Below are positions 27,530-64,000 of a stretch of 64,000 bases of DNA, piece after piece. A program made the translations under genes and the position numbers. The stretch's first letter is position 1, and each line of letters opens with the position of its first letter. The stretch lies in the IMG/VR virus record IMGVR_UViG_3300028840_001821; one strand, written 5' to 3'. Below the pieces are notes generated by a model. The model worked only from the letters and a program-made list of their open reading frames with translations. It was not told the origin of the DNA and searched no databases. The DNA comes from a virus. Taxonomy: Duplodnaviria > Heunggongvirae > Uroviricota > Caudoviricetes.

Positions 27530-27550
27530 CTCAGAATACCGGCTAACGCC

Positions 27551-27772: not shown

Positions 27773-27823
27773 AAATGTTTTACAGTTGTAGTTGTCGATC
27801 ATCCAGTCAACGTGGAAGGTAGG

Positions 27824-27900: not shown

Positions 27901-27905
27901 CTTTG

Positions 27906-27996: not shown

Positions 27997-27999
27997 TCC

Positions 28000-28081: not shown

Positions 28082-28107
28082 CTAACCGACTTTGTCGGGA
28101 GAAGAAA

Positions 28108-28296
28108 ATGTCTCAAACTCATGGTTCGAATATTCCAGGCAATCCATATTATGGAGAAAGTATCATGGACGCAATCATTGGAGAACTGAAGGTTCAGCTT
28201 GAGGCTATGAAGCGCCTTCCAAGCCACCGCGAGGTCGCGTTGGCGATCACAAAGCTGGAAGAGTCCATCATGTGGCTCAAGGCTTTCAAGAAGTAA
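28108..28296 (+). CDS. small hypothetical protein (62 aa)
   Basis: RBS cgggagaagaaaATG. The 5' part of track ORF 27967..28296 lies over tRNAs and is rejected. Confidence 0.4.
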   Translation: MSQTHGSNIPGNPYYGESIMDAIIGELKVQLEAMKRLPSHREVALAITKLEESIMWLKAFKK

Positions 28297-28302
28297 CTAT
28301 GT

Positions 28303-28378
28303 GCCCCTGTCGTCTAACGGATCAGGATCTCTGGCTACGAACCAGAGGATGGGAGTTCGAATCTCTCCGGGGGTACCA
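28303..28378 (+). tRNA. tRNA-Arg (anticodon ACG), CCA encoded
   Basis: Acceptor gcccctg/cgggggt followed by A-CCA, anticodon stem ctctgg/ccagag around loop cuACGaa, and T arm gggag-ttcgaat-ctctc. Confidence 0.6.
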
Positions 28379-28379
28379 C

Positions 28380-28451
28380 ACCCCTGTGATCTAACGGCTA
28401 GGGTATCTGCCTTACAAGCAGAAAGTGGTGGTTCGATTCCACCCAGGGGTA
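28380..28451 (+). tRNA. tRNA-Val (anticodon TAC)
   Basis: Acceptor acccctg/caggggt, perfect anticodon stem tctgc/gcaga around loop cuUACaa, and T arm ggtgg-ttcgatt-ccacc. Confidence 0.6.
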
Positions 28452-28455
28452 TAAA

Positions 28456-28526
28456 CGGGAATTGGTATAATGGTAGCATACGTGGTTTGGGACCACGGGG
28501 CGAAAGTTCGATTCTTTCATTCCCGA
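28456..28526 (+). tRNA. tRNA-Pro (anticodon TGG)
   Basis: Acceptor cgggaat/attcccg, D stem gtat/atac, anticodon stem cgtgg/ccacg around loop uuUGGga, and T arm gaaag-ttcgatt-ctttc. Confidence 0.6.
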
Positions 28527-28638
28527 TAACACGGAAGCCGTGGAAACGGTCAGACTCGATAAGCTTACCGCTAGCTAGGCATATGACTAGGTATGTGAGT
28601 CTATGTGGAGCCACTCACCGTAGAAACCGCTTCCAATC

Positions 28639-28713
28639 GGTCTTATGGTGTAACGAGTAACATACAGGACTGTCGATCCTGAGCACGGAGTGCAAGTCTC
28701 CGTAGGACCGCCA
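28639..28713 (+). tRNA. tRNA-Asp (anticodon GTC), CCA encoded
   Basis: Acceptor ggtctta/taggacc followed by G-CCA, perfect anticodon stem cagga/tcctg around loop cuGUCga, and T arm cggag-tgcaagt-ctccg. Confidence 0.6.
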
Positions 28714-28721
28714 TAATATAT

Positions 28722-28793
28722 GCCGGATTAGTTCATCAAGTAGAATACGCGCCTTGTAAGCATGAGAGCGGGGTGCAAGTCCTCGATCCGGCG
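28722..28793 (+). tRNA. tRNA-Thr (anticodon TGT)
   Basis: Perfect acceptor gccggat/atccggc and loop cuUGUaa. The anticodon stem has one mismatch. Confidence 0.5.
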
Positions 28794-28799
28794 CTCGAT

Positions 28800-28877
28800 G
28801 TCACAGATAGCTCAACTAGTTAGAGTATCGCACTGTGAATGCGAAGGTTGAGGGTGCGAGTCCCTCTCTGTGACCCA
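28800..28877 (+). tRNA. tRNA-His (anticodon GTG) with G-1, CCA encoded
   Basis: A G at -1 precedes acceptor tcacaga/tctgtga followed by C73-CCA. Perfect anticodon stem tcgca/tgcga around loop cuGUGaa, and T arm gaggg-tgcgagt-ccctc. Confidence 0.65.
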
Positions 28878-28878
28878 T

Positions 28879-28952
28879 AGGGTGATGGTGTAATGGTAAC
28901 ATGGCGGTTTCCAAAACCGCGGCTCAAGGTTCGATTCCTTGTCGCCCTGCCA
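28879..28952 (+). tRNA. tRNA-Trp (anticodon CCA), CCA encoded
   Basis: Acceptor agggtga/tcgccct followed by G-CCA, perfect anticodon stem gcggt/accgc around loop uuCCAaa, and T arm caagg-ttcgatt-ccttg. Confidence 0.6.
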
Positions 28953-28972
28953 TAACCTTTTAGGTTAGAAAT

Positions 28973-29110
28973 ATGATCTTAGAGAAAGATATCCCGCAGC
29001 CCAAGATAGACCCAGCTAAGTACTATGCTGCGGAGTATTTTGAATTTCATTATCCTCAGCCCAACTGGTTTGACCGCCTATGGGCAAAGATTGAAGACTG
29101 GCTTGATTAA
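28973..29110 (+). CDS. small hypothetical protein (45 aa)
   Basis: MILEKDIPQPKIDPAKYYAAEYFEFHYPQPNWFDRLWAKIEDWLD, lying between tRNA genes. Confidence 0.3.
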   Translation: MILEKDIPQPKIDPAKYYAAEYFEFHYPQPNWFDRLWAKIEDWLD

Positions 29111-29112
29111 CT

Positions 29113-29185
29113 GCGTCTATGGTGTTCAACGGTAGCACACGACGTTGCCAACGTCGAGGTTCGGGTTCAAGTCCCGGTAGATGCT
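29113..29185 (+). tRNA. tRNA-Gly (anticodon GCC)
   Basis: Acceptor gcgtcta/tagatgc, perfect anticodon stem cgacg/cgtcg around loop uuGCCaa, and T arm tcggg-ttcaagt-cccgg. Confidence 0.6.
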
Positions 29186-29192
29186 CTCATTA

Positions 29193-29268
29193 GCGTCCGT
29201 GGTGTTTAACAGTAGCATCACTGGCTTCCAACCAGTGGGTCTCGGTGCGATTCCGAGTGGACGCTCCA
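29193..29268 (+). tRNA. tRNA-Gly (anticodon TCC), CCA encoded
   Basis: Acceptor gcgtccg/tggacgc followed by U-CCA, perfect anticodon stem actgg/ccagt around loop cuUCCaa, and T arm ctcgg-tgcgatt-ccgag. Confidence 0.6.
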
Positions 29269-43557: not shown

Positions 43558-43915
43558 AGTCCCCGTTTACTTCCACGTCAACGAGGGCGTCTGGCACGTG
43601 CCCGGATTCCATGTCACGGTCTACGGGCGCTTTGTTCAGCCAGATCCAACAGAGATTCCGGTCGAGGTCTTCCGCGTGTTCCGTGACCAGTTCACGCTAG
43701 CCCCCATCACCAAAGAACTCCTTACTCATTTATTCGGCAACAAGTACTTTGCTTCGACGAAGTTCGAGCTTGGTAGCCTACACATCTTAGCCGAACCGTT
43801 CTTGCGCAAGCTCGCCGACAAGATCGGGATCAAACACAAACACCTGAAGTCGCGTGCCGGGATTGCAAGACTAATCCGCAACGAGATACTAAAGAGGATT
43901 GAAGATGGCTCTTAG
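43547..43915 (+). CDS. hypothetical structural protein
   Basis: 122 aa, overlaps its neighbours. Confidence 0.45.
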   Translation: MSIKVPVYFHVNEGVWHVPGFHVTVYGRFVQPDPTEIPVEVFRVFRDQFTLAPITKELLTHLFGNKYFASTKFELGSLHILAEPFLRKLADKIGIKHKHLKSRAGIARLIRNEILKRIEDGS

Positions 43916-44480
43916 ACCGATAAGAACAGAAAGCGTGATCAAGCGCGATGCTCACCCTCGCTGGATTCCAGCAGAGGCGGGCGGGCTTGTGTCGTTCACG
44001 GCTGCTAGCGGGGTAGACTATTCTATCTATGCTGCTGATCCATCCGGCGTCAATATCATCGGTATCCAACGGCACGATGTGATCGAGAACGATCGTCCGG
44101 ACTTGTTCCCGCGCCCGAGAACTCGCAAGATCCAGTATACATGGACGGAGGATCTGCTAGTGATCACTAAAGGTATGGTGGTTACAGACTTCATCCACCC
44201 CGATGCGACAGGTATTGTTGCGGGCGCTACAGCATATGCTGGTCCAAGTGGACTAGTTACGACTGACTCCTCCTTCAATGGCAGGATCGTTGGTTACTTC
44301 GAAGATGACCTTGTGGTAGATTCGCACGCAGTACTTGTAGAGGGAGGCGGCTACTACCGCCAGGAGTTCTATACGGACCCGAACACAGGGGAGAGAAGCC
44401 TGGAGGATAGGGGTTATCCGCGTAAGACGGTTACCTCTCCGGGCTGGGCAAAGTTAAGGCTGGCGATCCAAAATGGTTAG
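43899..44480 (+). CDS. hypothetical structural protein (MALRPIR paralog)
   Basis: 193 aa. Confidence 0.45.
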   Translation: MKMALRPIRTESVIKRDAHPRWIPAEAGGLVSFTAASGVDYSIYAADPSGVNIIGIQRHDVIENDRPDLFPRPRTRKIQYTWTEDLLVITKGMVVTDFIHPDATGIVAGATAYAGPSGLVTTDSSFNGRIVGYFEDDLVVDSHAVLVEGGGYYRQEFYTDPNTGERSLEDRGYPRKTVTSPGWAKLRLAIQNG

Positions 44481-46010: not shown

Positions 46011-47057
46011 ATGCTTATTAAGCCGAGGCAATTGATCAAGTTGAACTTGAAGTTCTTCCTGGATCAAGTTTTTATCCGCGACGGCAACTATCAAAACATC
46101 TCGCGTGGCACGCAGGCGTTTGATGGTACCGACGTGAGTAGATTACAGCCCGACAACGATGCAGAGACGCTAGCGAGCCTAGGGTTTGTTTCGACCGACA
46201 CTAATAAGGTGTGGCAGAGCCCATTCAAGAACTGGGTATATCAGTCTGGACTCGTCCATTCATACGACCGGGGCGAACCCCAGAAGACTGCTCCGACGAT
46301 TTGTTCTGGCATCTATCTCGACGGCGTGTTTAAGCCGGATAGGGCAGAGATGCCGTGGGGTCCCGCCGCAGGCTGGGATCCGACTTGCTTTCCGACAATC
46401 GACTGGATCAATGGTCGCGTGGTCATGAGCAGTGGCTTGCCGTCGAGTGCCACAGTTCAGGCAGCGTATTCTTACGGCGAAGTGACGGTCGCCCTAGCTA
46501 GCCGCGAAAACGAGGACATGGAAGAGTATGTCAAGAACTCGCGGTATGGTAATAATCCCGACACATGGAATAGCATCTCGTATCCTTCCGGTAGATTTCA
46601 ACCGCTTCCGGCGGTGTTCATCGAGATCTCCGAGCAGGACCATGATGCTTACGAGCTTGGTAACAGAAGCCTGAAGGAGCGGGATCAGGTGACTCTGTAC
46701 GTGGCATCCAACAGTAATGTTGTGTTGGATAACATCCTAGATACGATAAGGCTTCAGGACCGCCGGGGTTTTCCGATCGTTGATTACAACGTCGCCCCTC
46801 TTCCGCTGAGCGGTATTTTTTCTGAACGCTCTCCAGAATACATGCGTTACAGCATTCTTCAGGGGAACGTTGTGGCTCACCCGTCAGGCTACACTTCACT
46901 TTATGGTCAGGGGCAGTTCCAGTCTGCCCGGGTTCAGCTAGACAACATTCGGGGTCTAGAGGCTGGACAGGTGACAATGGACATCGAAACCTACATCATC
47001 GTTCCCGATTCACCTATTGGAACTTCTTCTATAGGGTATAATTTCTTTGAAAGCTAA
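46011..47057 (+). CDS. hypothetical structural protein
   Basis: 348 aa from the ATG; the track starts at GTG 46002. Confidence 0.45.
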   Translation: MLIKPRQLIKLNLKFFLDQVFIRDGNYQNISRGTQAFDGTDVSRLQPDNDAETLASLGFVSTDTNKVWQSPFKNWVYQSGLVHSYDRGEPQKTAPTICSGIYLDGVFKPDRAEMPWGPAAGWDPTCFPTIDWINGRVVMSSGLPSSATVQAAYSYGEVTVALASRENEDMEEYVKNSRYGNNPDTWNSISYPSGRFQPLPAVFIEISEQDHDAYELGNRSLKERDQVTLYVASNSNVVLDNILDTIRLQDRRGFPIVDYNVAPLPLSGIFSERSPEYMRYSILQGNVVAHPSGYTSLYGQGQFQSARVQLDNIRGLEAGQVTMDIETYIIVPDSPIGTSSIGYNFFES

Positions 47058-47646
47058 CATAGTCGCACTGTACGAGGCGGGGTCTAGCTTGCGACTTATT
47101 GGTGAGGCTTATGGTCGTAGCAAGACCTGGGTGCGTAAACGTCTCATTGACGCGGGTGTAGATATTCGTTCTGCCAGAGAAAGTAAGAAGGTTGGTCGAC
47201 TTGGTGCTGAAGTTCTGTGTAAAACATGTGGCACTATGGTCTATCGCAAGCCCAATAAGGTTGCACGGAACCTTAATACCTTTTGCTCTCGTCAGTGTTA
47301 TGCGTTGTCTTTGAAGCTGTCTATGCGCGGCAGTAGGAACCACCAATGGCACGGTGGTAGGTCTATTGCCACAATGATCCGTCATAGCGTGCGAAATAAG
47401 GAGTGGATTCAATTCATACTAGAACGAGATGATTTTACGTGTCGGCATTGTCACCAAAGGGGCGTTCATCTACACGTGCATCACATCTATCCGTTTGCTA
47501 GTATCTTGGATCGATTTCTTGAACAGAACTCTTCAAATAACATAGAGCTTCTACTAGAGGCGTCGCAGGAATTTGAAGAGTTTTTTGATATAGATAACGG
47601 CATCTCTTTATGTAGAGAATGTCATAAAGAAGTTCATCACTCGTAG
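47047..47646 (+). CDS. HNH homing endonuclease
   Basis: HNH motif ..CRHCHQRGVHLHVHHIYPF..NGISLCRECHKEVHH, plus an N-terminal HTH and a CxxC..CxxC zinc ribbon. It appears to use a TTG start. Confidence 0.65.
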   Translation: MKANIVALYEAGSSLRLIGEAYGRSKTWVRKRLIDAGVDIRSARESKKVGRLGAEVLCKTCGTMVYRKPNKVARNLNTFCSRQCYALSLKLSMRGSRNHQWHGGRSIATMIRHSVRNKEWIQFILERDDFTCRHCHQRGVHLHVHHIYPFASILDRFLEQNSSNNIELLLEASQEFEEFFDIDNGISLCRECHKEVHHS

Positions 47647-51469: not shown

Positions 51470-54400
51470 ATGCCTCCGTCTCAAAAGGTTGTAGTTGTCC
51501 TAGAGGTTCGCGCCAGTAAGAAGATTGACGCGGAACTCACTAAGGCAAAGTCTAAAGTTAAGGGATGGGCGGCAACTCTTACGCGGGAGATGAAGAACGT
51601 CTTCAAGAGGGCGACCTTCTTCCGCTTCTCTACAATTGGCATCAACTCCTTCTTCAACTCCATCCGCTTCGCCCGCCAGGAGGCTATCGCCTTCCAGGAT
51701 GCGCTAGGCGACATCGTCAAGGTTGACCTGAATAGGTTCATTGACCTCAACAGTAAGGCTACGCGCAAACTAAGCGATGACATCAGTAGACTAGCTAACG
51801 AGTATGGCATCTTGCGTGTCGAGGCGGCGCAGACCTTGCAGGCTATTACCGTCGCGGGTTTCCGTGGCGCTGAGGCAATGAAGGTGTTGGATGCAGCCCT
51901 CCTGGGTCAGTCCGCCACTGGTCTTAAGGCGGCAAAGGTCTTCAAGGCTATTTTGCTTCCTTCCATCCTTCAGTTCGGCGTTGGTGTAGACCAGCTAGAG
52001 TCCGCCCTTGATGTTCTTGTTACTACGCAGGCAAATGCTGCCGTTGGATTCGAGGACTTCGCTGGTGCGTTCCGTGCTGGTGGTGCTACCTTGGCGGGTA
52101 CAACCCGGTCCCTAAACGAAGCGGCTGCGCTTGTTGCCGCTCTCGGCGAGGTCACTCAGGAGTCTGGTGCCACGGTTGGTACGTTCTTCAAGACCTTGTC
52201 CCCGCGTCTGCTTGCGAACCCGGGTGCCAAGAGGGTATTAGAGACCTTTAAGGTTGATGTAGTTAACCCGCAGACAGGAGCCCTCAAGAGCACGGGCGAG
52301 GTTCTAGTTGACCTCAACCGGAACATGATCGGCTTGGGCGCGGGCGCTAAGCGTTACAACCTGAGCGTGGTCTCCGGTATTCGTCAGGGTAACCGTTTGA
52401 TCGCGGTTATGAACGCGCTAGCCAAGGTCGAAGAGCTAGTAGAGCTAAACTCCCGTGCGGCTGGAGACACGCGTCGTCGTGTTGCCGTCGAGCAGCAGAA
52501 GATTTCTGTTAAGTGGAGGAAGGTACAGAACGAGTTTGCTCAAAGCCTTGAGAAGTCCATGCTCCCGGTTATGGACGACCTCATTGTGGCAGCTAGGGAT
52601 ATTGCGCGTTTTGGTGCCGGTGCGATCAACACCTTAATTGAGGTTGGGCAGTCGCTTGGTATCATTAGTAAGGCTAGTCCAGAGGAAAAAAGGCAGTTAT
52701 CGCTGGTGCGGCAGATCGAGGGGGCTGCGAAGAATCTGTCCGATGCAGGGGTCGAGGCGGTTAATAAGCAGATCCTCAGTATGGCTGTTCAGGTTAAGCG
52801 TTTCAGTATAGAGGAGGCTAGGCAGATTGCCAGGGGTGCGGGTTTTGATCCCGGCATTATCGGTACTGCAATAGGTCGTTTGGCTGAGAATATTACGGGA
52901 CAGACGCCCGTTTCGTCGCAGAGGGCGATTACGAATCTAGATCAGCTCTCTACTATATATAGCGAGCTACTTGCGGGTGGCTTCAAGTTTGCCCAGGGGT
53001 TTGAGAATACCCAACAGCAGATTGGCAATCTCCAGACTATCTTAGCAGCCGTACGTAAGAGGGCGGCTGAAGACAAGAAGGCGGGTCTAGACCCACGCAT
53101 TACTACTGACCTTCCGACCGGGCTCGCCGGACCAGACAATCAGGGCTCTCAGTTTAGAAGTGTTCTGAAGACATTCAACACGGCTCTACGTGAGGGCGGA
53201 CCGGCGAAGTCTATCAAAGAGTTCCAGGTGCGGCTAACCAACGCGTTTGCGGCGATTAATAACCCGGTCAAGTCATTCAACCGTGGACTTCTTCAGCAGC
53301 GCAAGACACTGGTTCAGGTCAACCAAGAGCGGAAGATTGCCAGAGACAAGGCACTTGCTACAGCAGAAGAGCAAGCTAAGATCGATCTCCAGGGTCTAGA
53401 CGCCGGTGCTAAGAAGGCTTTGCAAGAAGAACTACAGTTAGCACGAGACAAGAGCCGAGTCGAGGCACTTAAGGATCAGGTTAAGCTAGCCGAGTTTGAC
53501 GCCAAGGCGATGCGTCGTCTGAATACCGAACTCAACTCCATGAAGGATAAGAGTAAGGACGCTGCGTCCAAGCTATCTACGTCAACGCGTCGATTGAACG
53601 AGTTGCGTATCGAGGAAGCTAAGGCAGCTACAGCAGTAGCCAAGGCGACCATCTCTATGAAGGACGCACTGATCGAATATGAGATCGGTCTACTCAGAGC
53701 CCAGCTTGAGTCTAAGAAGATTACAGGAGAGGTCGGCAGTCTCGCACAGGAGTTGGCGGGTTCTAAAAAGATCATTCCGTTGTTCCTTGAGGGATTAACG
53801 AAGGAGCTTCAGCAGCCGTCTCGTGTTGGCGGAGGATTCGGTGGCGACAACATCATCAAGGGTGAGTTGAAGCTATCGAATCTACGGAGAGAGTCGTTGC
53901 GTCAGCAGCTAGACTTGACCCAGCAGATCCTTAATCGTCAGCGAGAGATTGGCGAGTCCTTCTTCTCCCTGGACGCTGGCGGACGTAATCAGCTTGCCCA
54001 GGGTCTTGGTGCTATCCAAAACCTCTTTGGTAGGTTTGGTGGCGACGTGGGCGCGGTCCGTGGCTTGTCCTCTCAGGATCTAAATGCGTTTGGTCGCCAG
54101 CTTCTAGGCTTGCCGGATGACGTGAAGGAATCTATCTTACGTGCAACGGAGTTCATCCCCGAGGGTGCTACGGTTGCTGGCTTCACCGGTAAGCAGATTA
54201 GGGATATTATTGCGCAGGCATCTCTTGGTCGCGCCGATGGTACTGGCATCCTGGACATCGGGGCTCTCCAGGAGGAAGCCGCAGATGCTACAACCAAGCT
54301 TGCAGAGCTACAGACCGACGCGTTGGTCAACTCTATTGAGCAATTGAACGTCGCTCAGCAGCAGCTAGACCAGCAGAAGGCTCAGACAGAAGTTGCTCGT

Positions 54401-55255
54401 ATCCAGGTAGAGGTTGCGCGTCAGCAGTTGGCTGCTCTAACATCTGAGCAGGGCACACGCCGCGCAGGTATCATGGCAGAGATGGATTTCATCCGTAGGC
54501 AGAACCGCCCGACCGGTCCGGCGATGGGTACTAACGCTGTCCTTGGTCGTGCGAGCATGGCTAGGATTCAGGCATTCCAGACAGCTATGACAAACATCCT
54601 GGATCTAGCGCAAGAAAACCTAGAGTCTGGCAGGGGCACGGCAGAGACTATGGGCGTTCTACAGGAACGCTACGAGAGATTCAATCAGGCTATTAAGGAA
54701 AACGATACATCGATTGCCGCACTCAACGAGGGCTTCCTTAAAATGGGTAGGACAGTCACATCTCTCAACCAGTTGTTCGAGCAGGGTAGGGCTGCGGATC
54801 TCGCCAAGGTAGGTAGTGGTACGCCGGGCTTCGCCATTGCCAAGGGCAAGGCGGCTGGCTCCACGACACAGGTGCCGGTTGAGAAGGCGCTTCTGGATCT
54901 TATCGAGGTTCTACGTCCTCTAACCGGGGAAAAGGGATTCAACTCACAAGAGCTTGGCGTTATGATCAAGAACATCGAGGCGGCTCTAGCCAATAACGGT
55001 GGCAGGGTGCCGACAGAGGTATTGATCAAGCTAGCAGGCGAAACTATCGAGAAGCTAGAGATTACGGGGCTCGCCGAACTACCGGCAGCTATGGCGGACG
55101 TAGTAAAGAACCACCCGGACGTAAAGGACTCTGCGACATTCATCAAGAATCTGGGCGTCATCATCCGGGCAATGGTCGAGGCTGGTATTGGGGCAGGCGC
55201 GTTCCCGCCGAACCTGAGAGCACAGCTACCAAGTATTCCGGCAACAGGCGAGTAA
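51470..55255 (+). CDS. tail tape measure protein
   Basis: 1261 aa, rich in Ala/Gly/Gln/Leu, with long predicted helical stretches. Position and size are typical of a tape measure protein. Confidence 0.7.
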   Translation: MPPSQKVVVVLEVRASKKIDAELTKAKSKVKGWAATLTREMKNVFKRATFFRFSTIGINSFFNSIRFARQEAIAFQDALGDIVKVDLNRFIDLNSKATRKLSDDISRLANEYGILRVEAAQTLQAITVAGFRGAEAMKVLDAALLGQSATGLKAAKVFKAILLPSILQFGVGVDQLESALDVLVTTQANAAVGFEDFAGAFRAGGATLAGTTRSLNEAAALVAALGEVTQESGATVGTFFKTLSPRLLANPGAKRVLETFKVDVVNPQTGALKSTGEVLVDLNRNMIGLGAGAKRYNLSVVSGIRQGNRLIAVMNALAKVEELVELNSRAAGDTRRRVAVEQQKISVKWRKVQNEFAQSLEKSMLPVMDDLIVAARDIARFGAGAINTLIEVGQSLGIISKASPEEKRQLSLVRQIEGAAKNLSDAGVEAVNKQILSMAVQVKRFSIEEARQIARGAGFDPGIIGTAIGRLAENITGQTPVSSQRAITNLDQLSTIYSELLAGGFKFAQGFENTQQQIGNLQTILAAVRKRAAEDKKAGLDPRITTDLPTGLAGPDNQGSQFRSVLKTFNTALREGGPAKSIKEFQVRLTNAFAAINNPVKSFNRGLLQQRKTLVQVNQERKIARDKALATAEEQAKIDLQGLDAGAKKALQEELQLARDKSRVEALKDQVKLAEFDAKAMRRLNTELNSMKDKSKDAASKLSTSTRRLNELRIEEAKAATAVAKATISMKDALIEYEIGLLRAQLESKKITGEVGSLAQELAGSKKIIPLFLEGLTKELQQPSRVGGGFGGDNIIKGELKLSNLRRESLRQQLDLTQQILNRQREIGESFFSLDAGGRNQLAQGLGAIQNLFGRFGGDVGAVRGLSSQDLNAFGRQLLGLPDDVKESILRATEFIPEGATVAGFTGKQIRDIIAQASLGRADGTGILDIGALQEEAADATTKLAELQTDALVNSIEQLNVAQQQLDQQKAQTEVARIQVEVARQQLAALTSEQGTRRAGIMAEMDFIRRQNRPTGPAMGTNAVLGRASMARIQAFQTAMTNILDLAQENLESGRGTAETMGVLQERYERFNQAIKENDTSIAALNEGFLKMGRTVTSLNQLFEQGRAADLAKVGSGTPGFAIAKGKAAGSTTQVPVEKALLDLIEVLRPLTGEKGFNSQELGVMIKNIEAALANNGGRVPTEVLIKLAGETIEKLEITGLAELPAAMADVVKNHPDVKDSATFIKNLGVIIRAMVEAGIGAGAFPPNLRAQLPSIPATGE

Positions 55256-55271: not shown

Positions 55272-56747
55272 ATGCACCTATCGTCAGTCGTCCCGGGGAA
55301 CTCACAGTCCTGGGTCGAGATTTGGTATGGCGACGACCGGATCGGTCCGCCTACACCCCTTATCTCTTGGGACCGCGACTACGTAGAGTCTGGTAACGAA
55401 GAGAAGATCGCTGCTACCCGTGTAATCACACTGAACGGCACGTGGATCAACTCGCCGAGCGGAACCTACAACGATGTCTACGCGGCGCAGGAGCAATTGC
55501 TGTCCATCTTCGCAACAGATGGGAAGCATTTCTCTTTACGGGCGGGACCATCTAACACGGTGATTGCCCCTGGTGAATATATCGCCAGCGGCATCTATCC
55601 CAAGGTGCGTAGCATCTCGTTGCCGGAAGACCTCCAGTATGATAAGTTCATCTACACCGTTGTCCTTGAATACGACGAAGACGACATTGGCGCTAGCGGC
55701 TTAATTGAAAGCGAAGATAACACGTGGTCCTACAATGAGGTTGATGAGTCCCAAAGGGTCAGGATCGAACACTCGATTTCTATCGTGGGCAAGAACACGG
55801 CTCAGAGTGGCGAGACCAACAACGCGCATGAGAATGCCCGGGATTACGGCAGGACCCTGCTGGGGCTGGCTAAGGCTCCGGCGAACTTCCCGGTTCACGT
55901 GCATCAGAGCGAAGCGCCCCTGTATGAGATCTCTACTCAGCGCACAGAGTCCGTCAGCCTAACCCGTGGTTCGTATGATGCCACAGAGGCGTTCATTGTT
56001 ACGTCGGGCATCTATCCTTGGAATCATTCGCGCTCTATCTCGGTGAGTACCGACCGGGCAGGCATTACCTCTATCCAGCTTCAGGGTAAGATCCAGGGTC
56101 TAGGTAGAACAGACGTTGCGCCGAGCGGCAACGTTGGCTTCGACAATGCCACCTCTGGCTGGCTGAACCATGTGAAGCCGAACCTATATGTTGATGCTGC
56201 GGCATTCTATACAGGGTTGGGCTATTCGCTGTCGCTGAATAACAAGAGGATCGCGCAGTCTGTGGCAGAGTCCGAGTTTCTTGGCACGGTAGACTATGAC
56301 GTTACATATACCGACGATCCGGCAGACGACCTGCCGTCAGGTATCGCCGAAAGGTCTGTGACCTATGATCGTCGAGATCCGACCGAGCTATTGGCTCGCT
56401 TTACAATTCCGTTCAGACAGCTTGGCTCCATCGTACAAGAGATGGGAACAACGCTAGACGGTAGCATCAGCGTGAGTGCTCGCGCCAGGGCAACTAACAC
56501 CGGGGATGAGTCGGCGGACGTCAACCGCGCCATCGCCCAGGTAGAGTCAGACCTTAACGCGGTGAAGCCAGATCCAAACAGTTCTGAGTTTATACGCCTA
56601 GACCTAGTGGGACAGCCCTCTCTGAACTACGATATCAAGAGTAGGGTTGCCTCGGCGTCGATTCAGTATTCGTTCATCCTAGACTTGGCGGGCGTGAACT
56701 CTGCCAGCGGCAGTATTTCTCTTCCGCGTTACCAGGGAGGCTTGTAA
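55272..56747 (+). CDS. distal tail/baseplate protein (putative)
   Basis: 491 aa, directly after the tape measure gene. Confidence 0.45.
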   Translation: MHLSSVVPGNSQSWVEIWYGDDRIGPPTPLISWDRDYVESGNEEKIAATRVITLNGTWINSPSGTYNDVYAAQEQLLSIFATDGKHFSLRAGPSNTVIAPGEYIASGIYPKVRSISLPEDLQYDKFIYTVVLEYDEDDIGASGLIESEDNTWSYNEVDESQRVRIEHSISIVGKNTAQSGETNNAHENARDYGRTLLGLAKAPANFPVHVHQSEAPLYEISTQRTESVSLTRGSYDATEAFIVTSGIYPWNHSRSISVSTDRAGITSIQLQGKIQGLGRTDVAPSGNVGFDNATSGWLNHVKPNLYVDAAAFYTGLGYSLSLNNKRIAQSVAESEFLGTVDYDVTYTDDPADDLPSGIAERSVTYDRRDPTELLARFTIPFRQLGSIVQEMGTTLDGSISVSARARATNTGDESADVNRAIAQVESDLNAVKPDPNSSEFIRLDLVGQPSLNYDIKSRVASASIQYSFILDLAGVNSASGSISLPRYQGGL

Positions 56748-57259
56748 TGGTACTTCCGCCTGAAGTCAAGATCGTTCAGTTCGATGTGGCTGCTGCGACT
56801 AGTGGCACGTGGTCGGGGTTCGTAGATACAACAACCCAGGCTCTAGACTTTGGGCAGATCGATAACAGCGTCTCGGGCTTGGTGAGTGATACTAAGGTCG
56901 TCGCCATGAGTGGCGTCGAGTTCAATGGTAACACAGTTATCGAAGACATGCGTTTCTATGCGGTAGCGACTACTGCCTTTAGCCAGGGCACGTATCAGTT
57001 CCTTATGGAATTGACTAATACGTGGGCTCAGAATAAGCAGTTGACGACTGGGGCAGACGATGTCCCGATTTCGCTACCCGGTTCGCAGAACTATTTCAGG
57101 CATGGGGGAGGTGCGCAGATTACCGGCTCTGGTCAGGTAGACGGATTAGGGCAGTGGGCGTATCTTGCCATTTTTGCAGGGACAGACGTGCCAGATGGCA
57201 CTTATGGCGGCTTGGGCGCTGGCACTTTGCGCTATCGTTTCCGCTACGATTACTATTAA
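56747..57259 (+). CDS. tail protein, paralog family A
   Basis: 170 aa. Shares SLPGSQN(Y/L)F and a C-terminal ..R(Y/H)R(F/V).YDY motif with the 57842 gene. Confidence 0.45.
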   Translation: MVLPPEVKIVQFDVAAATSGTWSGFVDTTTQALDFGQIDNSVSGLVSDTKVVAMSGVEFNGNTVIEDMRFYAVATTAFSQGTYQFLMELTNTWAQNKQLTTGADDVPISLPGSQNYFRHGGGAQITGSGQVDGLGQWAYLAIFAGTDVPDGTYGGLGAGTLRYRFRYDYY

Positions 57260-57262
57260 GGA

Positions 57263-57838
57263 GTGGTCATGGTAGAGGTTTTTCCGGGCGCGGGAGTCGA
57301 TCCTAATATTGCCAATGCGGTCGATGGTGCTACAACTGCGCTGCGTACTGTGGACTACGCTCACCACGAGGTTCACAGCGGTAGACATTTTACATTCTCT
57401 GCAACTAGTGGAGACCTAGATATCGGGACTCCGCTAGAGTATCTTATTCATACGCCGGATACAGAGCGGTGGGCTCACCTGCTTGGTAACGTGTATGGGG
57501 CTCTACATACTAGGTTCGAATTCTTTGAAGGAGCTACTCACACGTCTGGCATTCATATGCCAATTCACAATAACAATAGGAATAGTGCCAATGGACCGGG
57601 TTTGATTATCACAGAACATGCGGATGACGGAGACGACGGCACCTTACTATTTGAAACTGAGTTTGGTGTAGATACTGGAGGTGGCGCAAATCGAGTCACC
57701 GGCGGCGGCACTGCTCGCGCGGACTCGGAGTGGGTATTGAAGCAGAATACAGTATACCTACTTAGGTTGTCTAGTCTAACAGCCGACAACGTGGTTAATA
57801 TGGCGCTTAGCTGGTATGAACACATCGACGCAAACTAG
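57263..57838 (+). CDS. tail protein
   Basis: 191 aa. Confidence 0.45.
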   Translation: MVMVEVFPGAGVDPNIANAVDGATTALRTVDYAHHEVHSGRHFTFSATSGDLDIGTPLEYLIHTPDTERWAHLLGNVYGALHTRFEFFEGATHTSGIHMPIHNNNRNSANGPGLIITEHADDGDDGTLLFETEFGVDTGGGANRVTGGGTARADSEWVLKQNTVYLLRLSSLTADNVVNMALSWYEHIDAN

Positions 57839-57841
57839 CGA

Positions 57842-58420
57842 ATGGACGGCATGATGGTTGACGCTCCAACTGTTCATTTATATGAATTTAACATCAGCGA
57901 GACTTCACCTGCGCCGACGCGCCACATCGCTAGTGGGTCGGCAGCATATGTGAAGACACTTGGGAGCGGTACGCAGTCAGCCTACCTGGAGTTCGATACC
58001 TTCACCGAAGAGGATTGGTACTACGGAGCCAAAACAAAAGTCTTTATTTTCAGGACTTCTTCACTAAATTATCGTATATATAATATGAGGTACTATGTTC
58101 CTGACCAAAGTGCCCTCTCTCCAGGTTCATCCCACTTGCAATTTGCCACTTCAGGCGTCTGGGCTGCATACCCCGCCCAAGCTGCCAGCGGTCAGGCTGG
58201 CATGATAGAAGTCCCCACATCTCTGCCAGGGTCGCAGAATCTCTTTGTACAGAATGGCGATGCCAGCATGAGTGGCACCCTGGACCCAGACGTCTCTCAG
58301 TACGTGTATGTGAGCCTCATCCTCGGCGCAGCCTTTCCGAATGGTCGGTATGGCGCGGGTGATGCTGGCTCGTTTGGTCGGTTTGAGCACAGAGTGACCT
58401 ACGATTATACGGGACCATAG
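57842..58420 (+). CDS. tail protein, paralog family A
   Basis: 192 aa, a paralog of the 56747 gene. Confidence 0.45.
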   Translation: MDGMMVDAPTVHLYEFNISETSPAPTRHIASGSAAYVKTLGSGTQSAYLEFDTFTEEDWYYGAKTKVFIFRTSSLNYRIYNMRYYVPDQSALSPGSSHLQFATSGVWAAYPAQAASGQAGMIEVPTSLPGSQNLFVQNGDASMSGTLDPDVSQYVYVSLILGAAFPNGRYGAGDAGSFGRFEHRVTYDYTGP

Positions 58421-58422
58421 CC

Positions 58423-59214
58423 ATGACTCTTGTATTACATGCAAAATTCAGTGAGATGGCTGGGACCCAGACTGTCAATGACGTCGATCCGACGCACAGC
58501 GGCGTGCTGGAGGGGTCTGGTATTCCGACGTGGCAGGGCGGCGGACCACGTAGCACATACCTGGACTTCAACGGGCTAGAGGGCGGTAGTATCGTACGCT
58601 TCCCTGAGAAGTCTGAGACGATGATCTCGGGCAATCTATCGGTGAGCGTATGGGTGAATACGACACAGACGTTTCCTGGCGCTCCGGCACCAGACCCACA
58701 GAAAGAGATGGTTACTCGTGGTGGCGGCAACTTCTCGTTTGGCTGGGAAGAGGGTGCTGTAGAAAACTTTGTGTGGCTGCGCTGTTTTTTTCGACGTCCA
58801 GACAACGTTAACTTCGAACTCGAATGGCGTGATGATAATCCGCAGCCGGGATTCCGAGATGGTGCTTGGCACAATATCCTGATTCGATTCCAGCCATCCT
58901 CAGACGATGCTACATCAGATGGGGTTGCCCAACTATGGGTTGACGGAATTTTGAAAGATGAAGAGTCTCATAATCTATCGCAGCTCAAAATCTCTGGTGT
59001 CGAGGACTGGTGGATTATTGGTGGTCGTAAGTCTACTGCCACCGAGGTAATTGACCGCAACCTAATCGGCAGTATCACAGACGTAAAGGTCTGGGATGAA
59101 TACATCTCAGACGCACAGATACAAATAGAAGCAACACCCGCCTCCGACCTAGTAGGAGGTATGGATGGTTTCATACGTAGCCATCCGGGGCGTCATATTC
59201 GCAAACTCTCTTAA
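58423..59214 (+). CDS. LamG-like (concanavalin-A-like jellyroll) domain tail protein
   Basis: ..SVSVWVNT..DGAWHNILIRF..LWVDGIL..GSITDVKVWDEYISDAQIQ matches the Laminin_G_3-type pattern that ends in (V)W/Y-(N)-x-ALS-x-x-(E/Q)I. Confidence 0.5.
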   Translation: MTLVLHAKFSEMAGTQTVNDVDPTHSGVLEGSGIPTWQGGGPRSTYLDFNGLEGGSIVRFPEKSETMISGNLSVSVWVNTTQTFPGAPAPDPQKEMVTRGGGNFSFGWEEGAVENFVWLRCFFRRPDNVNFELEWRDDNPQPGFRDGAWHNILIRFQPSSDDATSDGVAQLWVDGILKDEESHNLSQLKISGVEDWWIIGGRKSTATEVIDRNLIGSITDVKVWDEYISDAQIQIEATPASDLVGGMDGFIRSHPGRHIRKLS

Positions 59215-59512: not shown

Positions 59513-59950
59513 ATGTTTGAGACGCAAGAAAAAGGAAATACGATCACCGCGACGCTTCAGGCGTATAGTGGTGAGCAAGTCGAGTTCACATTCGATAAGG
59601 AAGAAGGACACTCCTTTGAGATTGGCGGTACCGCCTCAAACCAGGTGCTTACGTATCCTGTCAAGGTGCTGGCAGTCTACACCAAAGAAGACGATGGCAA
59701 GGAATACTGCGACGTGCAGATCGGAGACAGGTGCTTTCCTGATCGCCGCGTTTGCGGTGTCATCGTTCCCAACCAGACAGCCTTCCTTATTGAAACCTAT
59801 GATCTTAACGACAAGCCGCGCTGGCTAGTTGTTAAAGATATCCCGGAAGCGGTGCGTCGTCACTTCATCAATATCGACGTCCGCCGTGGTGCCTCTTTGG
59901 TTAAGAGGTTGCGCATTGATCCGTTTCTAGGCGATTCTAAGGTGATGTAA
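59513..59950 (+). CDS. hypothetical protein
   Basis: 145 aa. Its stop overlaps the next ATG (TAATG). Confidence 0.45.
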   Translation: MFETQEKGNTITATLQAYSGEQVEFTFDKEEGHSFEIGGTASNQVLTYPVKVLAVYTKEDDGKEYCDVQIGDRCFPDRRVCGVIVPNQTAFLIETYDLNDKPRWLVVKDIPEAVRRHFINIDVRRGASLVKRLRIDPFLGDSKVM

Positions 59951-62900
59951 TGGCTACATCTGGCATCCTCGCCCTCATTGATTGGGAGGATTTCTCCACT
60001 GGTGATCTACATGGTCAGAATGGATGGAGGGTCCAGAACGAGGATGGTGTGCGCCCAGTTGGCTTTGATTCCGTAATCATTACAGAGGTTGGTGCGCCTA
60101 GCGGTCAGATCGCTATGCGGAACAATCCTGGCACTGTGTCTGACGACCGCCGCGCCGTCATGGTTCTAGACGGCAGTGGCGTAGATCGTTCTGCGTATGA
60201 TAAGGTGTCGATTGAAGCTGGTATGATCATGAACCAGCTAGAAGGTCGCTCCATTATGCTCATTCGACCGAGCGGAGCGACGAATGATACACTATATGGT
60301 TATCGTGTTGAGTGGGAACACAACACTGGCGCAGCAGACACACTAACATTCGACCGTCTAGACAACGGTGCGATTACTAACCTAGACTCATTCAATATTG
60401 ATAGGGTAGAAAGTCTACGCCTATTAGTAGAGGATGATGATAGTAATATCACTATATGGGCTAACGCCTCTGGTACCTGGGAGTTTATCCATCAAGAAGC
60501 GACTACGACGTATAACTACCTCCCAACTAGCGGCGCATTCCAGTTGCGTACTGACGAAGCGGGTCTTATTCACGGTATTGGCGATGTCACCATATACGGC
60601 GTGAATAATGCAACCGCGACCTCGGGTCAGATTGGTGCCTACGTCCACAACTTCGAGGAACGATGTATCCTCGATATCGACTTTGAGAACTACACAGACG
60701 GCAACTTACTAACTGACAGCCAGCCAGACGACTGGTGGACCCTGACCAGCAACGGTAAGCCTACCGCAGCTAATGACGCATACATCAAAAGCGACCCTGG
60801 TAGCGGTCTAGTGATGTGGCGTCGTGCCGATGCCGTGGCGTTCCCGGGTAAGGCGATCATCGCCGTACTTAACTCGGGCGTTCCCACCAATGCTAGTTCT
60901 TTACGATATGAGTTAGACGTCGCGCCCGATCAGGCTGCGACTAGCCAGTGCAAAGCCGACATTCTATTCCGTCCTAAGAGTGGAATGGCGAACAACCTCA
61001 CTACATGGCGTTTCGGATACTGGCGACGCCTCTCGGGTCAGGATCGTTTTGTTCTTCAGGAGTTGTTGAACGGCGGTAACGTTCAGGCTCTTGCCTACCT
61101 GACTGACGACTATACTATCACCTCTGCTCGTCTACGTGTAGTTGATGACGGTGATTTGATTCAGTGCCATGTTAAAGCGAAGAACTCGGGCATTTGGGAG
61201 GAAACTCATAGCCTGTATGACAATTCGCTTAATGACCAAACGCCAAGTGGTGCGCTGAACTTTGATGGTGATGGTACTAATGTAGTTGTTCAGGTAGATA
61301 ACTTTAACATCTATGCGACATACTCCGGTCTTCAGGTGACTACCGGCGAGATTGGCGGCTACGTTAACGGCGTGGCTGTTTCTACGTCTGGTGAGATTGG
61401 TGGCTATATTGAGGCTGGTGCCGCACCGACACCAACGTCTGGTGAGATCGGTGGCTATGTTCCAGCCTTTAGTCCAGAATCATCTGGACAGATTGGTGGC
61501 TATCTACAAGTATATCCTGGTGCGACACCAGAGGTCTTCACTAAGATTGATCCAGCCATCCAGAGTTGGTGGTATGGCAACGAGGACTCTCCGGGCGACG
61601 CTCTTGTTGATTACGGAGACCTGGGTAACGACCTTGTTGCCCTTACTCCTGTCAACCAGGGTATTCTTACAAGCGGTGTTCAGACAGCTAATATCCAGAG
61701 AGAGAATGCGCGTGTAACGAAGAACGCTGGTACTGGCACAAATGCGAAGTTCCGTGGTGTCGATATTGGGGAGCAGTACACGGGGTCGGCGGAGAACTTT
61801 ACCTGGCAGGGTTGGATATATCCGAGCGGCGGTCACCTACAGGAGACGCAGCCGGTTGTCCTAATCATGCGGGACGATCAGACATTCAATAACAGTGCGC
61901 GTTTCGCAATACAGGTTGTTGGTTCGGCTGGCAAGCCGGTCGATAGGCTACAGGTGGCACACAGGTGGGGTGCGGGCTCTGCGGAAATCGATTACGTCAC
62001 TACGGCGCACGGCGCGGTTCCAAGCGGTCAATTTGTTCATATTGCAGCTACATACAATAAGACTGGCGGAGAGGTTATTCTCTACGTCAATGGCGGCATT
62101 GTTGGCTCCGGCGCGATCACGGGCGTTATGGGTTCTGGTTCTGCGGATGAGCTAGCCCTCCAGGGTAATCCCAACCCGGCGAACACAGACTTCACGGGCG
62201 CTGCCAACGACATCATGTTCATCAGCCGCGCATTGTCAAGCGGAGAGGTTGCATATGTAGCCGAGTCCGGAGTCGGTCCCGTACCTTCTGCTGGTGAATC
62301 CATTGGTGGCTATCTCGATGCATTCGTGACCAGCGTAACTGCTACAGAAGAGCAGATGCAGGGGGTCTGGAGGCTTGATGAGTTAGGCGACAACGATACG
62401 CGCCTAGACAGTAGCGGCAAGAGCAATCACCTCAATGTGATTACAGGATCACCGAAACAGGTTGCAGCTCGTAGAAACAATGGCACAAGATTTGAGCATT
62501 GGGTTAACCCCTTCCCGTCACTACAACGTACTGGTAGTGGCGTGTCCACCGGGCTTAGCCCAACGGCGTCATCTTGGACAATGGGTCTGTGGGCGAAGCC
62601 CAGCGGCGTGGCGTATGAACGCTATGCGCAGCTTGCGGGCAAGGGTTCTTATGATCAGTATGTCCTATATATGGACGAAGAAGGCGAGGTCTGGGGTCAG
62701 GTAAGTATCGACGGCATCGGCTACGTTGTTTCGACACAGCCGAGCAGCCTGATCGCTAACGAGTGGCAGCATATCGATTGGGTGGTTGACCGCGATAACG
62801 AGGTCCAGTATATCTACCGCACGGGCTCCGACTACATCCCGACTATTATTGGTAGTGGTGCTCTGCCGGATTCGTCCAAGGCACAGGACACAACAACCGA

Positions 62901-64000
62901 ACCGTTCCATGTCGGCGCATCTCCGACGAACCAACAGCCATACGACGGCGATTTAGACGAAGTTTACTTCATCCAGCGGGCTCTGTCGTCTGGAGAGATT
63001 CTATCCGTCGTGAAGATCGGCTTGCCGATAGTGATTGCCACGGGTGCGTCGGGTCAGATTGGCGGCTACATGGCAGCGCCGGACTCGGCGACGGGCGTGT
63101 CTGGTCAGGTCGGTGGCTACACGGACGGCGTCCAGCTATCGGCATCGGGCGAGGTTGGTGGCTACCTAGAGCAGCTAGATTCGCCGACAGGGTCGTCGGG
63201 TCAGATTGGCGGATACACAACATACGATCTAGAATCAGCGTCGGGTCAGATTGGCGGATACGTCACATATACCCAGGAGACTGGCTCGGGTCAGGTCGGA
63301 GGCTATCTAAACGCGGTTAGCGTGGATGACGACGCATCCTTCCTCTCGATGTTCACATATGTTGTGCCGGAAGATATCGACTTTGATCTAATCGCCAGGA
63401 TCGGTAGCGCGATGTCGAATGACTTCGATGCGACACTTCAGGTCTTGAGGCAGTATACACCGCCGACAGTGACCTGCTATGTTACTGGCTCCGGCACTCT
63501 CGACGGTTACTATCACGTCACGGTATCTGGTACTGTGACCGTGGGCGATGAGACCATCCAGAATGGTGCGGCAAACGAGATCGAGAGTGTCTGGATCCAG
63601 TTTGGTAACATGAGTGGTCAGCAGGACGTGACGCCGAGCGACGGCGTGTTTGAGGTCGAGCACACGTTCACATCGTCTGGTGTATACATCATTCGTGCTG
63701 ACGCCATTGATAAGCAGGGCACGCACGGTAGCTGCCGCAAGCGCGTTGACCTATCGGTTGGTCTAGCCGCAGACGAGAAGATAACGCTGGAACTAACCGG
63801 CACGCCACAGAGTGGTGTAGTACCACACACGATCGCCTTCACGCAGGCGTATGGTGTGCAGCCGGTGGGAGTAAAGGAATCGATCATCAACTTCGGTGAT
63901 CGTACACTCTCGCACTATGATGATCCGACACACCTCTACCATTCGGTCGGAAACTATATCCCGGTCTGGATCGTCAGAGATGACAACGGTCGGTTTTGGT
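59950..64000 (+). CDS. giant tail fiber / receptor-binding protein (partial, runs off window)
   Basis: I read no stop codon from ATG 59950 to the window end, giving more than 1350 aa. It is absent from the ORF track, presumably because it is unterminated. It has at least two LamG-like modules (..NDIMFISRALSSGEVAYV.., ..LDEVYFIQRALSSGEILSVV..) and about 16 copies of an S-G-(Q/E)-(I/V)-G-G-Y heptapeptide. Confidence 0.55.
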   Translation, partial: MATSGILALIDWEDFSTGDLHGQNGWRVQNEDGVRPVGFDSVIITEVGAPSGQIAMRNNPGTVSDDRRAVMVLDGSGVDRSAYDKVSIEAGMIMNQLEGRSIMLIRPSGATNDTLYGYRVEWEHNTGAADTLTFDRLDNGAITNLDSFNIDRVESLRLLVEDDDSNITIWANASGTWEFIHQEATTTYNYLPTSGAFQLRTDEAGLIHGIGDVTIYGVNNATATSGQIGAYVHNFEERCILDIDFENYTDGNLLTDSQPDDWWTLTSNGKPTAANDAYIKSDPGSGLVMWRRADAVAFPGKAIIAVLNSGVPTNASSLRYELDVAPDQAATSQCKADILFRPKSGMANNLTTWRFGYWRRLSGQDRFVLQELLNGGNVQALAYLTDDYTITSARLRVVDDGDLIQCHVKAKNSGIWEETHSLYDNSLNDQTPSGALNFDGDGTNVVVQVDNFNIYATYSGLQVTTGEIGGYVNGVAVSTSGEIGGYIEAGAAPTPTSGEIGGYVPAFSPESSGQIGGYLQVYPGATPEVFTKIDPAIQSWWYGNEDSPGDALVDYGDLGNDLVALTPVNQGILTSGVQTANIQRENARVTKNAGTGTNAKFRGVDIGEQYTGSAENFTWQGWIYPSGGHLQETQPVVLIMRDDQTFNNSARFAIQVVGSAGKPVDRLQVAHRWGAGSAEIDYVTTAHGAVPSGQFVHIAATYNKTGGEVILYVNGGIVGSGAITGVMGSGSADELALQGNPNPANTDFTGAANDIMFISRALSSGEVAYVAESGVGPVPSAGESIGGYLDAFVTSVTATEEQMQGVWRLDELGDNDTRLDSSGKSNHLNVITGSPKQVAARRNNGTRFEHWVNPFPSLQRTGSGVSTGLSPTASSWTMGLWAKPSGVAYERYAQLAGKGSYDQYVLYMDEEGEVWGQVSIDGIGYVVSTQPSSLIANEWQHIDWVVDRDNEVQYIYRTGSDYIPTIIGSGALPDSSKAQDTTTEPFHVGASPTNQQPYDGDLDEVYFIQRALSSGEILSVVKIGLPIVIATGASGQIGGYMAAPDSATGVSGQVGGYTDGVQLSASGEVGGYLEQLDSPTGSSGQIGGYTTYDLESASGQIGGYVTYTQETGSGQVGGYLNAVSVDDDASFLSMFTYVVPEDIDFDLIARIGSAMSNDFDATLQVLRQYTPPTVTCYVTGSGTLDGYYHVTVSGTVTVGDETIQNGAANEIESVWIQFGNMSGQQDVTPSDGVFEVEHTFTSSGVYIIRADAIDKQGTHGSCRKRVDLSVGLAADEKITLELTGTPQSGVVPHTIAFTQAYGVQPVGVKESIINFGDRTLSHYDDPTHLYHSVGNYIPVWIVRDDNGRFW
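61340..61510 (+). repeat. in-frame tandem repeat, period about 42-48 nt (SGEIGGY units x4)
   Basis: The unit ggYgagatYggYggctaY recurs 4 times within the fiber gene. Confidence 0.6.
63040..63310 (+). repeat. in-frame tandem repeat, period about 42-48 nt (SGQIGGY units x6)
   Basis: The unit tcgggtcagattggcggNtac recurs 6 times, encoding ..ASGQIGGYMAAPDSATGVSGQVGGYTDGVQLSASGEVGGYLEQLDSPTGSSGQIGGYTTYDLESASGQIGGYVTYTQETGSGQVGGYLNAV. Confidence 0.65.

Follow-up and report, generated by a model that had tools for sequence, protein, structure and literature searches.

A 1,360-residue, repeat-bearing putative adhesin of an uncultured large phage

Architecture of the adhesin gene

The window analysed here, a 64,000-nucleotide (nt) stretch of the tailed-phage record IMGVR_UViG_3300028840_001821 (IMG/VR; Caudoviricetes), ends inside a large gene for a putative adhesin in which a short peptide motif, S-G-(Q/E)-(I/V)-G-G-Y, recurs between globular domains. 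Translation of the + strand from position 59950 gave 1,350 codons free of stops up to the window end at 64000, and an exact-match protein search recovered the complete protein, P0001, of 1,360 amino acids (aa), which was found on contigs of up to 169,698 bp. An independently assembled contig of 10.9 kb (L001), which matches the window at every one of the 4,582 bases that the two have in common, supplies the stop codon, which ends 32 nt past the window at window-equivalent position 64032. An earlier reading of the letters of this DNA, made with no database searches (the sequence-only reading), had described a giant gene of more than 1350 aa, unterminated at the window end and open to doubt through a missed stop; there is indeed no stop between 59950 and 64000, and the size can now be given exactly.

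P0001 holds 12 copies of the motif, 11 of which follow [ST]-G-[QE]-[IV]-G-[GA]-Y, the twelfth being the degenerate GESIGGY. They are arranged as 1+4+1+6, with starts at aa 225; 465, 480, 497 and 512; 782 (the degenerate copy); and 1034, 1051, 1066, 1083, 1098 and 1113, the start-to-start spacing within blocks being 15 or 17 aa (45 or 51 nt). The two blocks and the isolated copies described from the letters are thus real, whilst the tally of about 16 units and the spacing of 14–16 aa given with them are superseded by these values. Strict copies numbered nine, as against none when the protein was shuffled 2,000 times, and the motif was absent from all other frames and genes of the window and of L001. 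Over the 28 units of P0001 and its relative P0002 the S, G, G, G and Y residues are nearly invariant, whilst linkers and codons vary.

The layout of the whole protein is D1-R1-D2-R4-LamG1-R1-LamG2-R6-neck-PKD-PKD, R standing for a run of repeats with its copy number, and each of the globular modules (two D and two LamG, of 225–260 aa) has at least one repeat copy after it (Table 1). LamG1 and LamG2 both score above the gathering cut-off of Laminin_G_3 (PF13385; 27.6 bits) and end in ..FISRALSSGEV.. and ..FIQRALSSGEI.. respectively, so that the sequence-only reading was right in seeing at least two LamG modules closed by an F(I)xRALSSGE strand, as it was in seeing a further LamG-like protein upstream. 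The two D domains, two PKD domains and a three-unit ‘DFDA’ neck are additions to that reading. D1 and D2, which make up the first 460 residues, are paralogous to each other (domain E 2e-5) and belong to a family of eight instances in a jackhmmer search; the D domain matched nothing in Pfam or the PDB, and the idea that it is a cryptic LamG domain was rejected on these grounds and on an hhalign probability of 0.5% against LamG. At the C-terminus, assignment to PKD (PF18911 / PF00801) follows from a hidden Markov model score above the cut-off of 27 bits, taken on the complete C-terminus and matched in two stretches, together with a predicted Ig-like beta-sandwich.

Table 1. Features of the adhesin gene and of selected neighbours, with positions in the 64,000-nt window
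Feature	Position	Strand	Basis
Adhesin/fibre gene (P0001, 1,360 aa)	59950..64000, running on to 64032 including the stop	+	Open frame, exact full-length protein, locus L001
D1, N-terminal domain of ~224 aa, opening with the half-motif ATSGILAL	59950..60621	+	Paralogous to D2
Single copy SGQIGAY, between D1 and D2	60622..60642	+	Motif search
D2, second D domain	60661..61335	+	Paralogy to D1; jackhmmer family
Four-copy block TGEIGGY, SGEIGGY (twice), SGQIGGY; spacing 15, 17, 15 aa	61342..61503	+	Motif search
LamG1 module; Laminin_G_3 match 61759–62253 (aa 604–768)	61507..62289	+	PF13385, E 3.6e-17, 63.4 bits
Single degenerate copy GESIGGY, invariant junction opening the constant C-terminal part	62293..62313	+	G786 and Y788 invariant in 7 relatives
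LamG2 module; Laminin_G_3 match 62563–63000 (aa 872–1017)	62317..63039	+	PF13385, E 3e-14, 53.8 bits
Six-copy block; spacing 17, 15, 17, 15, 15 aa	63049..63306	+	Six units in register across 32 family members
Neck, three variant units with (D)FD(A/L)	63307..63453	+	14-residue register in the wider family
First PKD/Ig-like beta-sandwich	63454..63759	+	AlphaFold2 pLDDT >90; ColH PKD tandem E 1.6e-15; Foldseek tandem Ig/FN3/PKD folds
Second PKD domain, 10 residues cut off by the window end	63760..64000	+	Pfam PKD_4 E 5.3e-8, 33.2 bits; ColG PKD TM-score 0.73
145-aa open reading frame, its stop overlapping the adhesin start, no family match	59513..59950	+	Kept in relatives L002 and L040
Separate 263-aa LamG protein	58423..59214	+	Pfam PF13385 Laminin_G_3, E 5.9e-9, 36.7 bits
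Tape-measure protein, marker of the upstream tail module	51470..55255	+	PhageMin_Tail E 3.6e-15; PHROG tape-measure families to E 6.5e-22

Conservation and predicted shape of the repeat

In a word-indexed protein database the only relative of P0001 was P0002 (1,639 aa). An exhaustive HMMER search using aa 151–1350 returned 415 proteins at E<=1e-3, and the whole C-terminal module, comprising repeat block, neck and two PKD domains, was covered by 46 of the 153 sequences retrieved, from 45 clusters. Carriers of the module are metagenomic proteins of 418–2,772 aa, most of them with several N-terminal LamG-like modules; several family members lie on contigs of 115–181 kb, and three further ones on IMG/VR contigs, two of which measure 164.5 and 177 kb. 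Across the 46 proteins the spacing of the motif is exactly 14 residues in 184 of 245 cases (75%), and the unit reads S(90%)-G(99)-φ(78)-φ(95)-G(91)-G(88)-Y/F(83)-φ(89)-x-G(71)-x-D(35)-x-G/A, φ being a hydrophobic residue, with a hydrophobic occupancy of 78, 95, 96 and 89% at positions 3, 4, 7 and 8. The canonical repeat is a 14-residue S-G-φ-φ-G-G-(Y/F)-φ-x-G-x-D-x-x, of which the 15- and 17-residue units of P0001 are stretched versions. Spacing between successive FDA motifs of the neck is likewise 14 in 66 of 78 cases, and the neck F falls 17, 31 and 45 residues past the last motif S, which is position 4 of the repeat register; since the neck keeps this register, a single periodic structure would extend from the first repeat to the ‘PP’ before the first PKD domain. 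In an alignment of 32 sequences the last six units correspond one to one between family members.

The repeat-plus-neck part occurs in no PHROG family, Pfam entry or PDB sequence (the last searched to E<=10), and neither tblastn in 50,697 GenBank phage records nor megablast of GenBank phages found a relative of the adhesin gene. Only the PKD pair has known relatives: it resembles that of the clostridial collagenases, in the family profile (E 1.6e-15 against the ColH PKD1-PKD2 tandem) as in the model (TM-score 0.73 against the ColG PKD domain), although the PKD domain is all that is held in common, with neither a catalytic nor a collagen-binding module on the phage side. The six-repeat block used alone as a protein-database query returned nothing, not even P0001, and a profile of the module returned no more than four small PKD proteins in a word-indexed search, the word index being swamped. 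When 185,579 species genomes were scanned with a degenerate DNA pattern for a tandem of three IGGY units, 26 loci came up, all of them unrelated Gly-rich proteins or chance matches, and no prophage or host was identified. Three of these loci, in metagenome-assembled genomes of Bacteriovoracaceae (L018, L035) and Gemmataceae (L038), encode low-complexity proteins rich in glycine, with stretches like GGIGGYPGMGG or GGGIGGYGGGIGGY, and show no homology to the module. Nothing was found in the literature on the motif strings or on tail fibres combining LamG and PKD. A 14-residue repeat not described before, together with a C-terminal module of ~330 aa that is conserved, defines a sizeable family in uncultured large phages.

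Structure prediction gave a divided result. An AlphaFold2 (AF2) monomer model of aa 790–1360 from a two-sequence alignment was unusable, with a mean predicted local distance difference test score (pLDDT) of 29. With the 32-sequence alignment the module was modelled as two beta-sandwiches over aa 1169–1360 (pLDDT >90), preceded by repeats and a neck at pLDDT 35–50 that showed only two-residue hairpins round each GG; where the sequence-only reading had raised a beta-solenoid or beta-roll, the monomer model offers isolated hairpins at low confidence. Foldseek matched the C-terminal pair to generic tandem FN3/PKD/Ig adhesin domains, those of CbhA, SiiE, the ColG PKD and the T5 tail tip, and structural matches in BFVD were equally generic.

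The explanation that we prefer, with moderate confidence, is that P0001 acts as an adhesin on the virion surface of an uncultured phage of ~170 kb and that its repeats form a regular, probably oligomeric, beta-structured shaft. Four globular modules, two D and two LamG/ConA-like, are strung together by 1, 4, 1 and 6 repeat copies, and the repeat segments between them would be short, regular, beta-structured pieces of shaft, probably built from several chains that pack against one another. An exchangeable glycan-binding specificity would come from the LamG and D domains, and the constant part, made up of LamG2, the six repeats, the neck and both PKD domains, would carry a function common to the family, presumably assembly and attachment to the virion. 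That the repeat is a regular structure needing several chains is favoured by the conservation of the motif, by its exact period, by its hydrophobic pairs and by the failure of the monomer model. Because consecutive hydrophobic pairs flank the GG turn on both sides, both faces of the repeat would be buried, and the exact 14-residue register running on through the neck argues for one continuous periodic structure and not for floppy linkers.

We think it unlikely that P0001 is instead a monomeric beads-on-a-string adhesin, in which the SGxIGGY units would be flexible or elastic Gly-rich linkers with no fold of their own that give the lectin and PKD domains their reach. The low pLDDT of the repeats and the bare two-residue hairpins of the AF2 monomer would suit such a protein, as would the stretches between motif cores, which are unconserved and consist largely of A, P, S, T and G, and tandems of PKD/Ig domains typify monomeric adhesins, among them SiiE, the ice-binding adhesin and collagenase. 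A mere linker, however, would not keep S-G-x-φ-G-G-Y nearly invariant below 30% protein identity, and the exact period in three-quarters of the 245 spacings, the four hydrophobic positions at 78–96%, the copy number fixed at six in the terminal block (see below) and the neck in the same register all speak against it.

Amongst shafts of known structure, the triple beta-spiral of adenovirus fibre, reovirus sigma1 and PRD1 P5 consists of 15-residue units, a to o, with hydrophobic residues at c, e, g, k and m and Pro or Gly at j in the turn (PMC3150272). The repeats of P0001 resemble it in their units of ~15 residues around a tight Gly turn, in the variable loops between units, in reaching up to and between globular domains and in the occurrence of single or few units interspersed with other elements. 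Membership was nonetheless rejected, since in the best register Gly or Pro occupied j in 96% but hydrophobic residues occupied c/e/g/k/m in only 40%; in addition, the canonical period of the P0001 family is 14 and not 15, its S-G..G-G-Y signature has no counterpart in the spiral, and, where the spiral is an intertwined homotrimer, the P0001 shaft is no more than probably oligomeric. In YadA-type trimeric autotransporter adhesins the head is a left-handed parallel beta-roll whose units of 14 residues read ‘NSVAIG-S’ (Pfam Hep_Hag / YadA head). These units have in common with the repeat their period of 14 and an S-x-x-I-G core that is spaced alike, and YadA works as a trimer. The GG-aromatic pair is missing from YadA units, however, AF2 built no beta-roll for the P0001 repeats, and YadA/Hep_Hag was rejected for want of a Pfam match at E<=10 or E<=1 and of a PDB sequence match at E<=10. 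A bolder proposal, which we put forward only tentatively and regard as doubtful, is that the repeats are a new oligomeric beta-fold, with the neck in register, distinct from the triple beta-spiral, the triple beta-helix and the YadA beta-roll, and that this fold would serve both as shaft and as universal splice point by which lectin cassettes are joined onto a constant C-terminal anchor in a large clade of uncultured ~170-kb phages, a polarity opposite to the textbook N-terminal anchor.

Variation between relatives and genomic context

Relatives of P0001 differ by whole domain-plus-repeat cassettes, with junctions that fall in the motif. In seven proteins of its subfamily the constant part begins with the single copy ahead of LamG2 and runs on to the C-terminus, with G786 and Y788 invariant, and the terminal block has six copies in all seven, down to 39% identity, the spacing 17-15-17-15-15 being common to P0001, P0002 and P0003. 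Ahead of this part P0002 is longer by one D domain and its six-copy block (D1-D2a-R4-D2b-R6-LamG1-R1-LamG2-R6-Ct, Ct being the C-terminal part), P0003 reads D2-R5-LamG1-R1-LamG2-R6-Ct and, as also a homologue at locus L003, is without D1, and P0004 and P0005 begin at LamG1 (LamG1-R1-LamG2-R6-Ct). The homologue at locus L040 is shorter still (D2-R1-LamG2-R6-Ct), and P0006 likewise joins a D domain directly to LamG2. At the L040 junction, ..ASYRGLSSEEVGGYLASQDILVTANEEQ.., the sequence looks like a fusion of two repeats, the opening copy of the window's four-copy block and the single copy that precedes LamG2; a recombination event joining two copies of the motif would produce such a junction, as equally would selection for junctions at the motif. 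The N-terminus of P0001 (window 59950–59995, aa 1–15), MATSGILALIDWEDF, resembles the repeat-plus-domain start before D2, ATSGQIGAYVHNFEE..IDFENY, and P0006 and L040 begin much like it; the cassette unit may be ‘motif + domain’.

Even between relatives with a 93%-identical capsid protein the N-terminal domains differ and the C-terminal part is the same. From this variable N-terminal and constant C-terminal part we infer that the C-terminal module is the end used for assembly or attachment and that the lectin cassettes form the exposed, exchangeable end, the reverse polarity being less likely. Short glycine-rich or His-box motifs delimit the exchangeable segments of the T-even gp37/gp38 adhesins, and P0001 is like these in that short conserved motifs flank variable modules and coincide with exchange junctions, and unlike them in the sequence of the motif and in the exchange of whole domains of 225–260 aa in place of short loops, recombination at the motif being in P0001 a surmise. 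There is likeness also to phage fibres and tips that combine LamG/ConA with Ig/PKD/FN3 domains, such as the LamG-like jellyroll protein of Brevibacillus phage SecTim467, variants of the tip attachment protein J and the FN3 domains of the T5 tail tip, with which P0001 shares the Laminin_G_3 and PKD vocabulary, a neighbourhood after the tape measure and a mosaic, modular evolution. The P0001 family differs from them in its conserved C-terminal end, in having no sequence homology to GenBank phage proteins and in a repeat, neck and D domain that are absent from Pfam, PHROGs and the PDB.

The adhesin ATG overlaps the stop codon of the upstream 145-aa open reading frame (ORF) in the sequence TAATG and is preceded by the ribosome-binding site AAGGTG, and the gene is translationally coupled to this conserved ORF. 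The ORF lies directly 5' of the adhesin gene in three phages (window 59513–59950, L002 1344–1781 and L040 ~315–835) and may be a candidate adhesin chaperone or adaptor. Further upstream the same strand encodes TerL, the portal and the tape measure, and the tape measure (51470–55255) is followed by six further same-strand ORFs and then by the adhesin gene, which thus has a position downstream of the tape measure in the window; L002, which has a LamG ORF at a position matching window 58423–59214, and L040 agree in placing the gene in the block 3' of the tape measure, L003 being the exception. Between the tape measure and the LamG gene (55272–58420) lie four ORFs of 491, 170, 191 and 192 aa, none of which matched Pfam, the only PHROG match being phrog_5335, of function unknown, for the 191-aa ORF. 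Past the window end, L001 (4611–10720) continues with same-strand ORFs of 927, 162, 743 and 197 aa, which matched neither Pfam nor PHROG families and carry no motif. The baseplate of this phage lineage is not recognisable by sequence.

In L003 (9965–10969 of IMGVR_UViG_3300027852_000217) the adhesin homologue begins directly behind the counterpart of window 43899–44480, the ~15 kb of tail genes that separate 43899–44480 from the adhesin gene in the window being missing. Its major capsid protein and portal are 93% and 80% identical to those of the window, and three explanations offer themselves for its gene order: a rearrangement, the presence of a second adhesin locus, or a join made in assembly. 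Such a place would suit a head, neck or accessory decoration protein, Hoc-like or whisker-like, that is held by a C-terminal PKD anchor and adheres loosely to surfaces or mucus-like glycans without a part in host recognition. Accessory virion proteins often bear Ig-like and PKD domains, the BFVD matches are generic, and the conserved end is C-terminal, as is the end through which Hoc is anchored in the capsid. Yet in the window, L002 and L040 the gene lies 3' of the tape measure with a further LamG gene, the 927- and 743-aa ORFs coming after it, which is the usual place of a fibre, and the L003 contig ends inside the homologue, leaving its gene context incomplete; we therefore consider a decoration protein improbable, to much the same degree as the flexible linkers discussed above.

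A tail-associated fibre, with the tail a likelier place than the head, is most likely what the adhesin is, and to see a fibre or glycan-binding adhesin here, as the sequence-only reading did, is sensible for a large modular protein with LamG domains encoded downstream of the tape measure in a structural block. Several points weigh against this interpretation. The L003 homologue sits directly after head/neck genes, and the tail location is drawn from gene order because no neighbouring baseplate gene could be identified, the putative ones having matched no Pfam or PHROG family of known function. Homology to known fibre or baseplate-attachment proteins was not found among PHROG families or by tblastn in the 50,697 phage records, and the GenBank phage searches gave no homologue with a tested function and placed the module in no cultured phage. 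Glycan binding by the LamG domains is assumed from their superfamily, the low pLDDT of the repeats could reflect a shallow alignment or true flexibility, and most known fibres are attached N-terminally and vary C-terminally, opposite to the polarity proposed here.

The phage itself is, by sequence, remote from cultured phages: its TerL is 25% identical to that of Bacillus siphophages, and amongst GenBank phages its major capsid protein had no match, with a marginal one at best for its portal. Thirty tRNA genes stand in a dense array on the + strand (24097–29268), which covers all 20 amino acids and includes two tRNA-Met(cat) and one tRNA-Ile(tat), a very large complement for a phage. An HNH endonuclease ORF lies inside the tail-gene block (47047–47646; phrog_8446, E 1e-19), and L003 carries an HNH gene (6504–7454) that is 32% identical to it but placed just after the major capsid gene; both look like mobile homing endonucleases.

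DNA divergence of the repeats and its implications

At the DNA level, Tandem Repeats Finder detected no array in the adhesin gene, even at a score of 30, and an ungapped repeat finder recovered only a core of 26–31 nt at 65–87% identity. By direct count, mean identity between units is 70% over the 21-nt core and 49% over the whole 45-nt unit (maximum 69%), with linkers at 30%, which is the chance level, and the conserved Ser, Gly and Tyr residues are encoded by several synonymous codons. Since whole units are this different, linkers are at chance and codons differ, the periodicity is maintained at the protein level and not at the DNA level; the units are old and diverged and form no substrate for slippage. 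No exact repeat in the gene is longer than 23 nt, a length reached by a single pair (63194/63239), and there are several near-matches of 18 nt.

The sequence-only reading had taken the repeats for near-identical DNA units of 42–48 nt, prone to slipped-strand or recombinational variation in length, and had suggested copy number in related phages as a check. Neither the identity of the units nor slippage survives, the terminal block being constant at six copies in the seven subfamily proteins and the two assemblies identical over 4,582 nt; recombinational variation does hold in the form of whole domain-plus-repeat cassettes, and not as a change in the length of a DNA repeat. That tandem DNA repeats expand and contract here by slipped-strand mispairing or unequal recombination, making the fibre a rapidly length-variable contingency gene, is very improbable and already largely refuted, since the short shared cores (the 23-nt pair and the 18-nt near-matches) and the differing copy number of the internal block among relatives (4, 4+6 and 5) are set against the missing array, the diverged units, chance-level linkers and differing codons, the terminal copy number and spacing kept between relatives and the agreement of two independent assemblies over 4.6 kb. 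Under the preferred explanation, variation would instead arise by gain and loss of whole cassettes at motif junctions.

A false lead is thereby removed, since the locus contains no unstable array of tandem DNA repeats. Host range is decided by the fibres and adhesins of phages, and the few fibrous folds known are used as engineering scaffolds. The module described here is common to dozens of large proteins from uncultured phages of about 115–180 kb and, if its repeat proves to be a new oligomeric shaft and a natural junction for the swapping of lectins, it would give a handle for annotating such proteins and a possible scaffold for the modular design of receptor-binding proteins.

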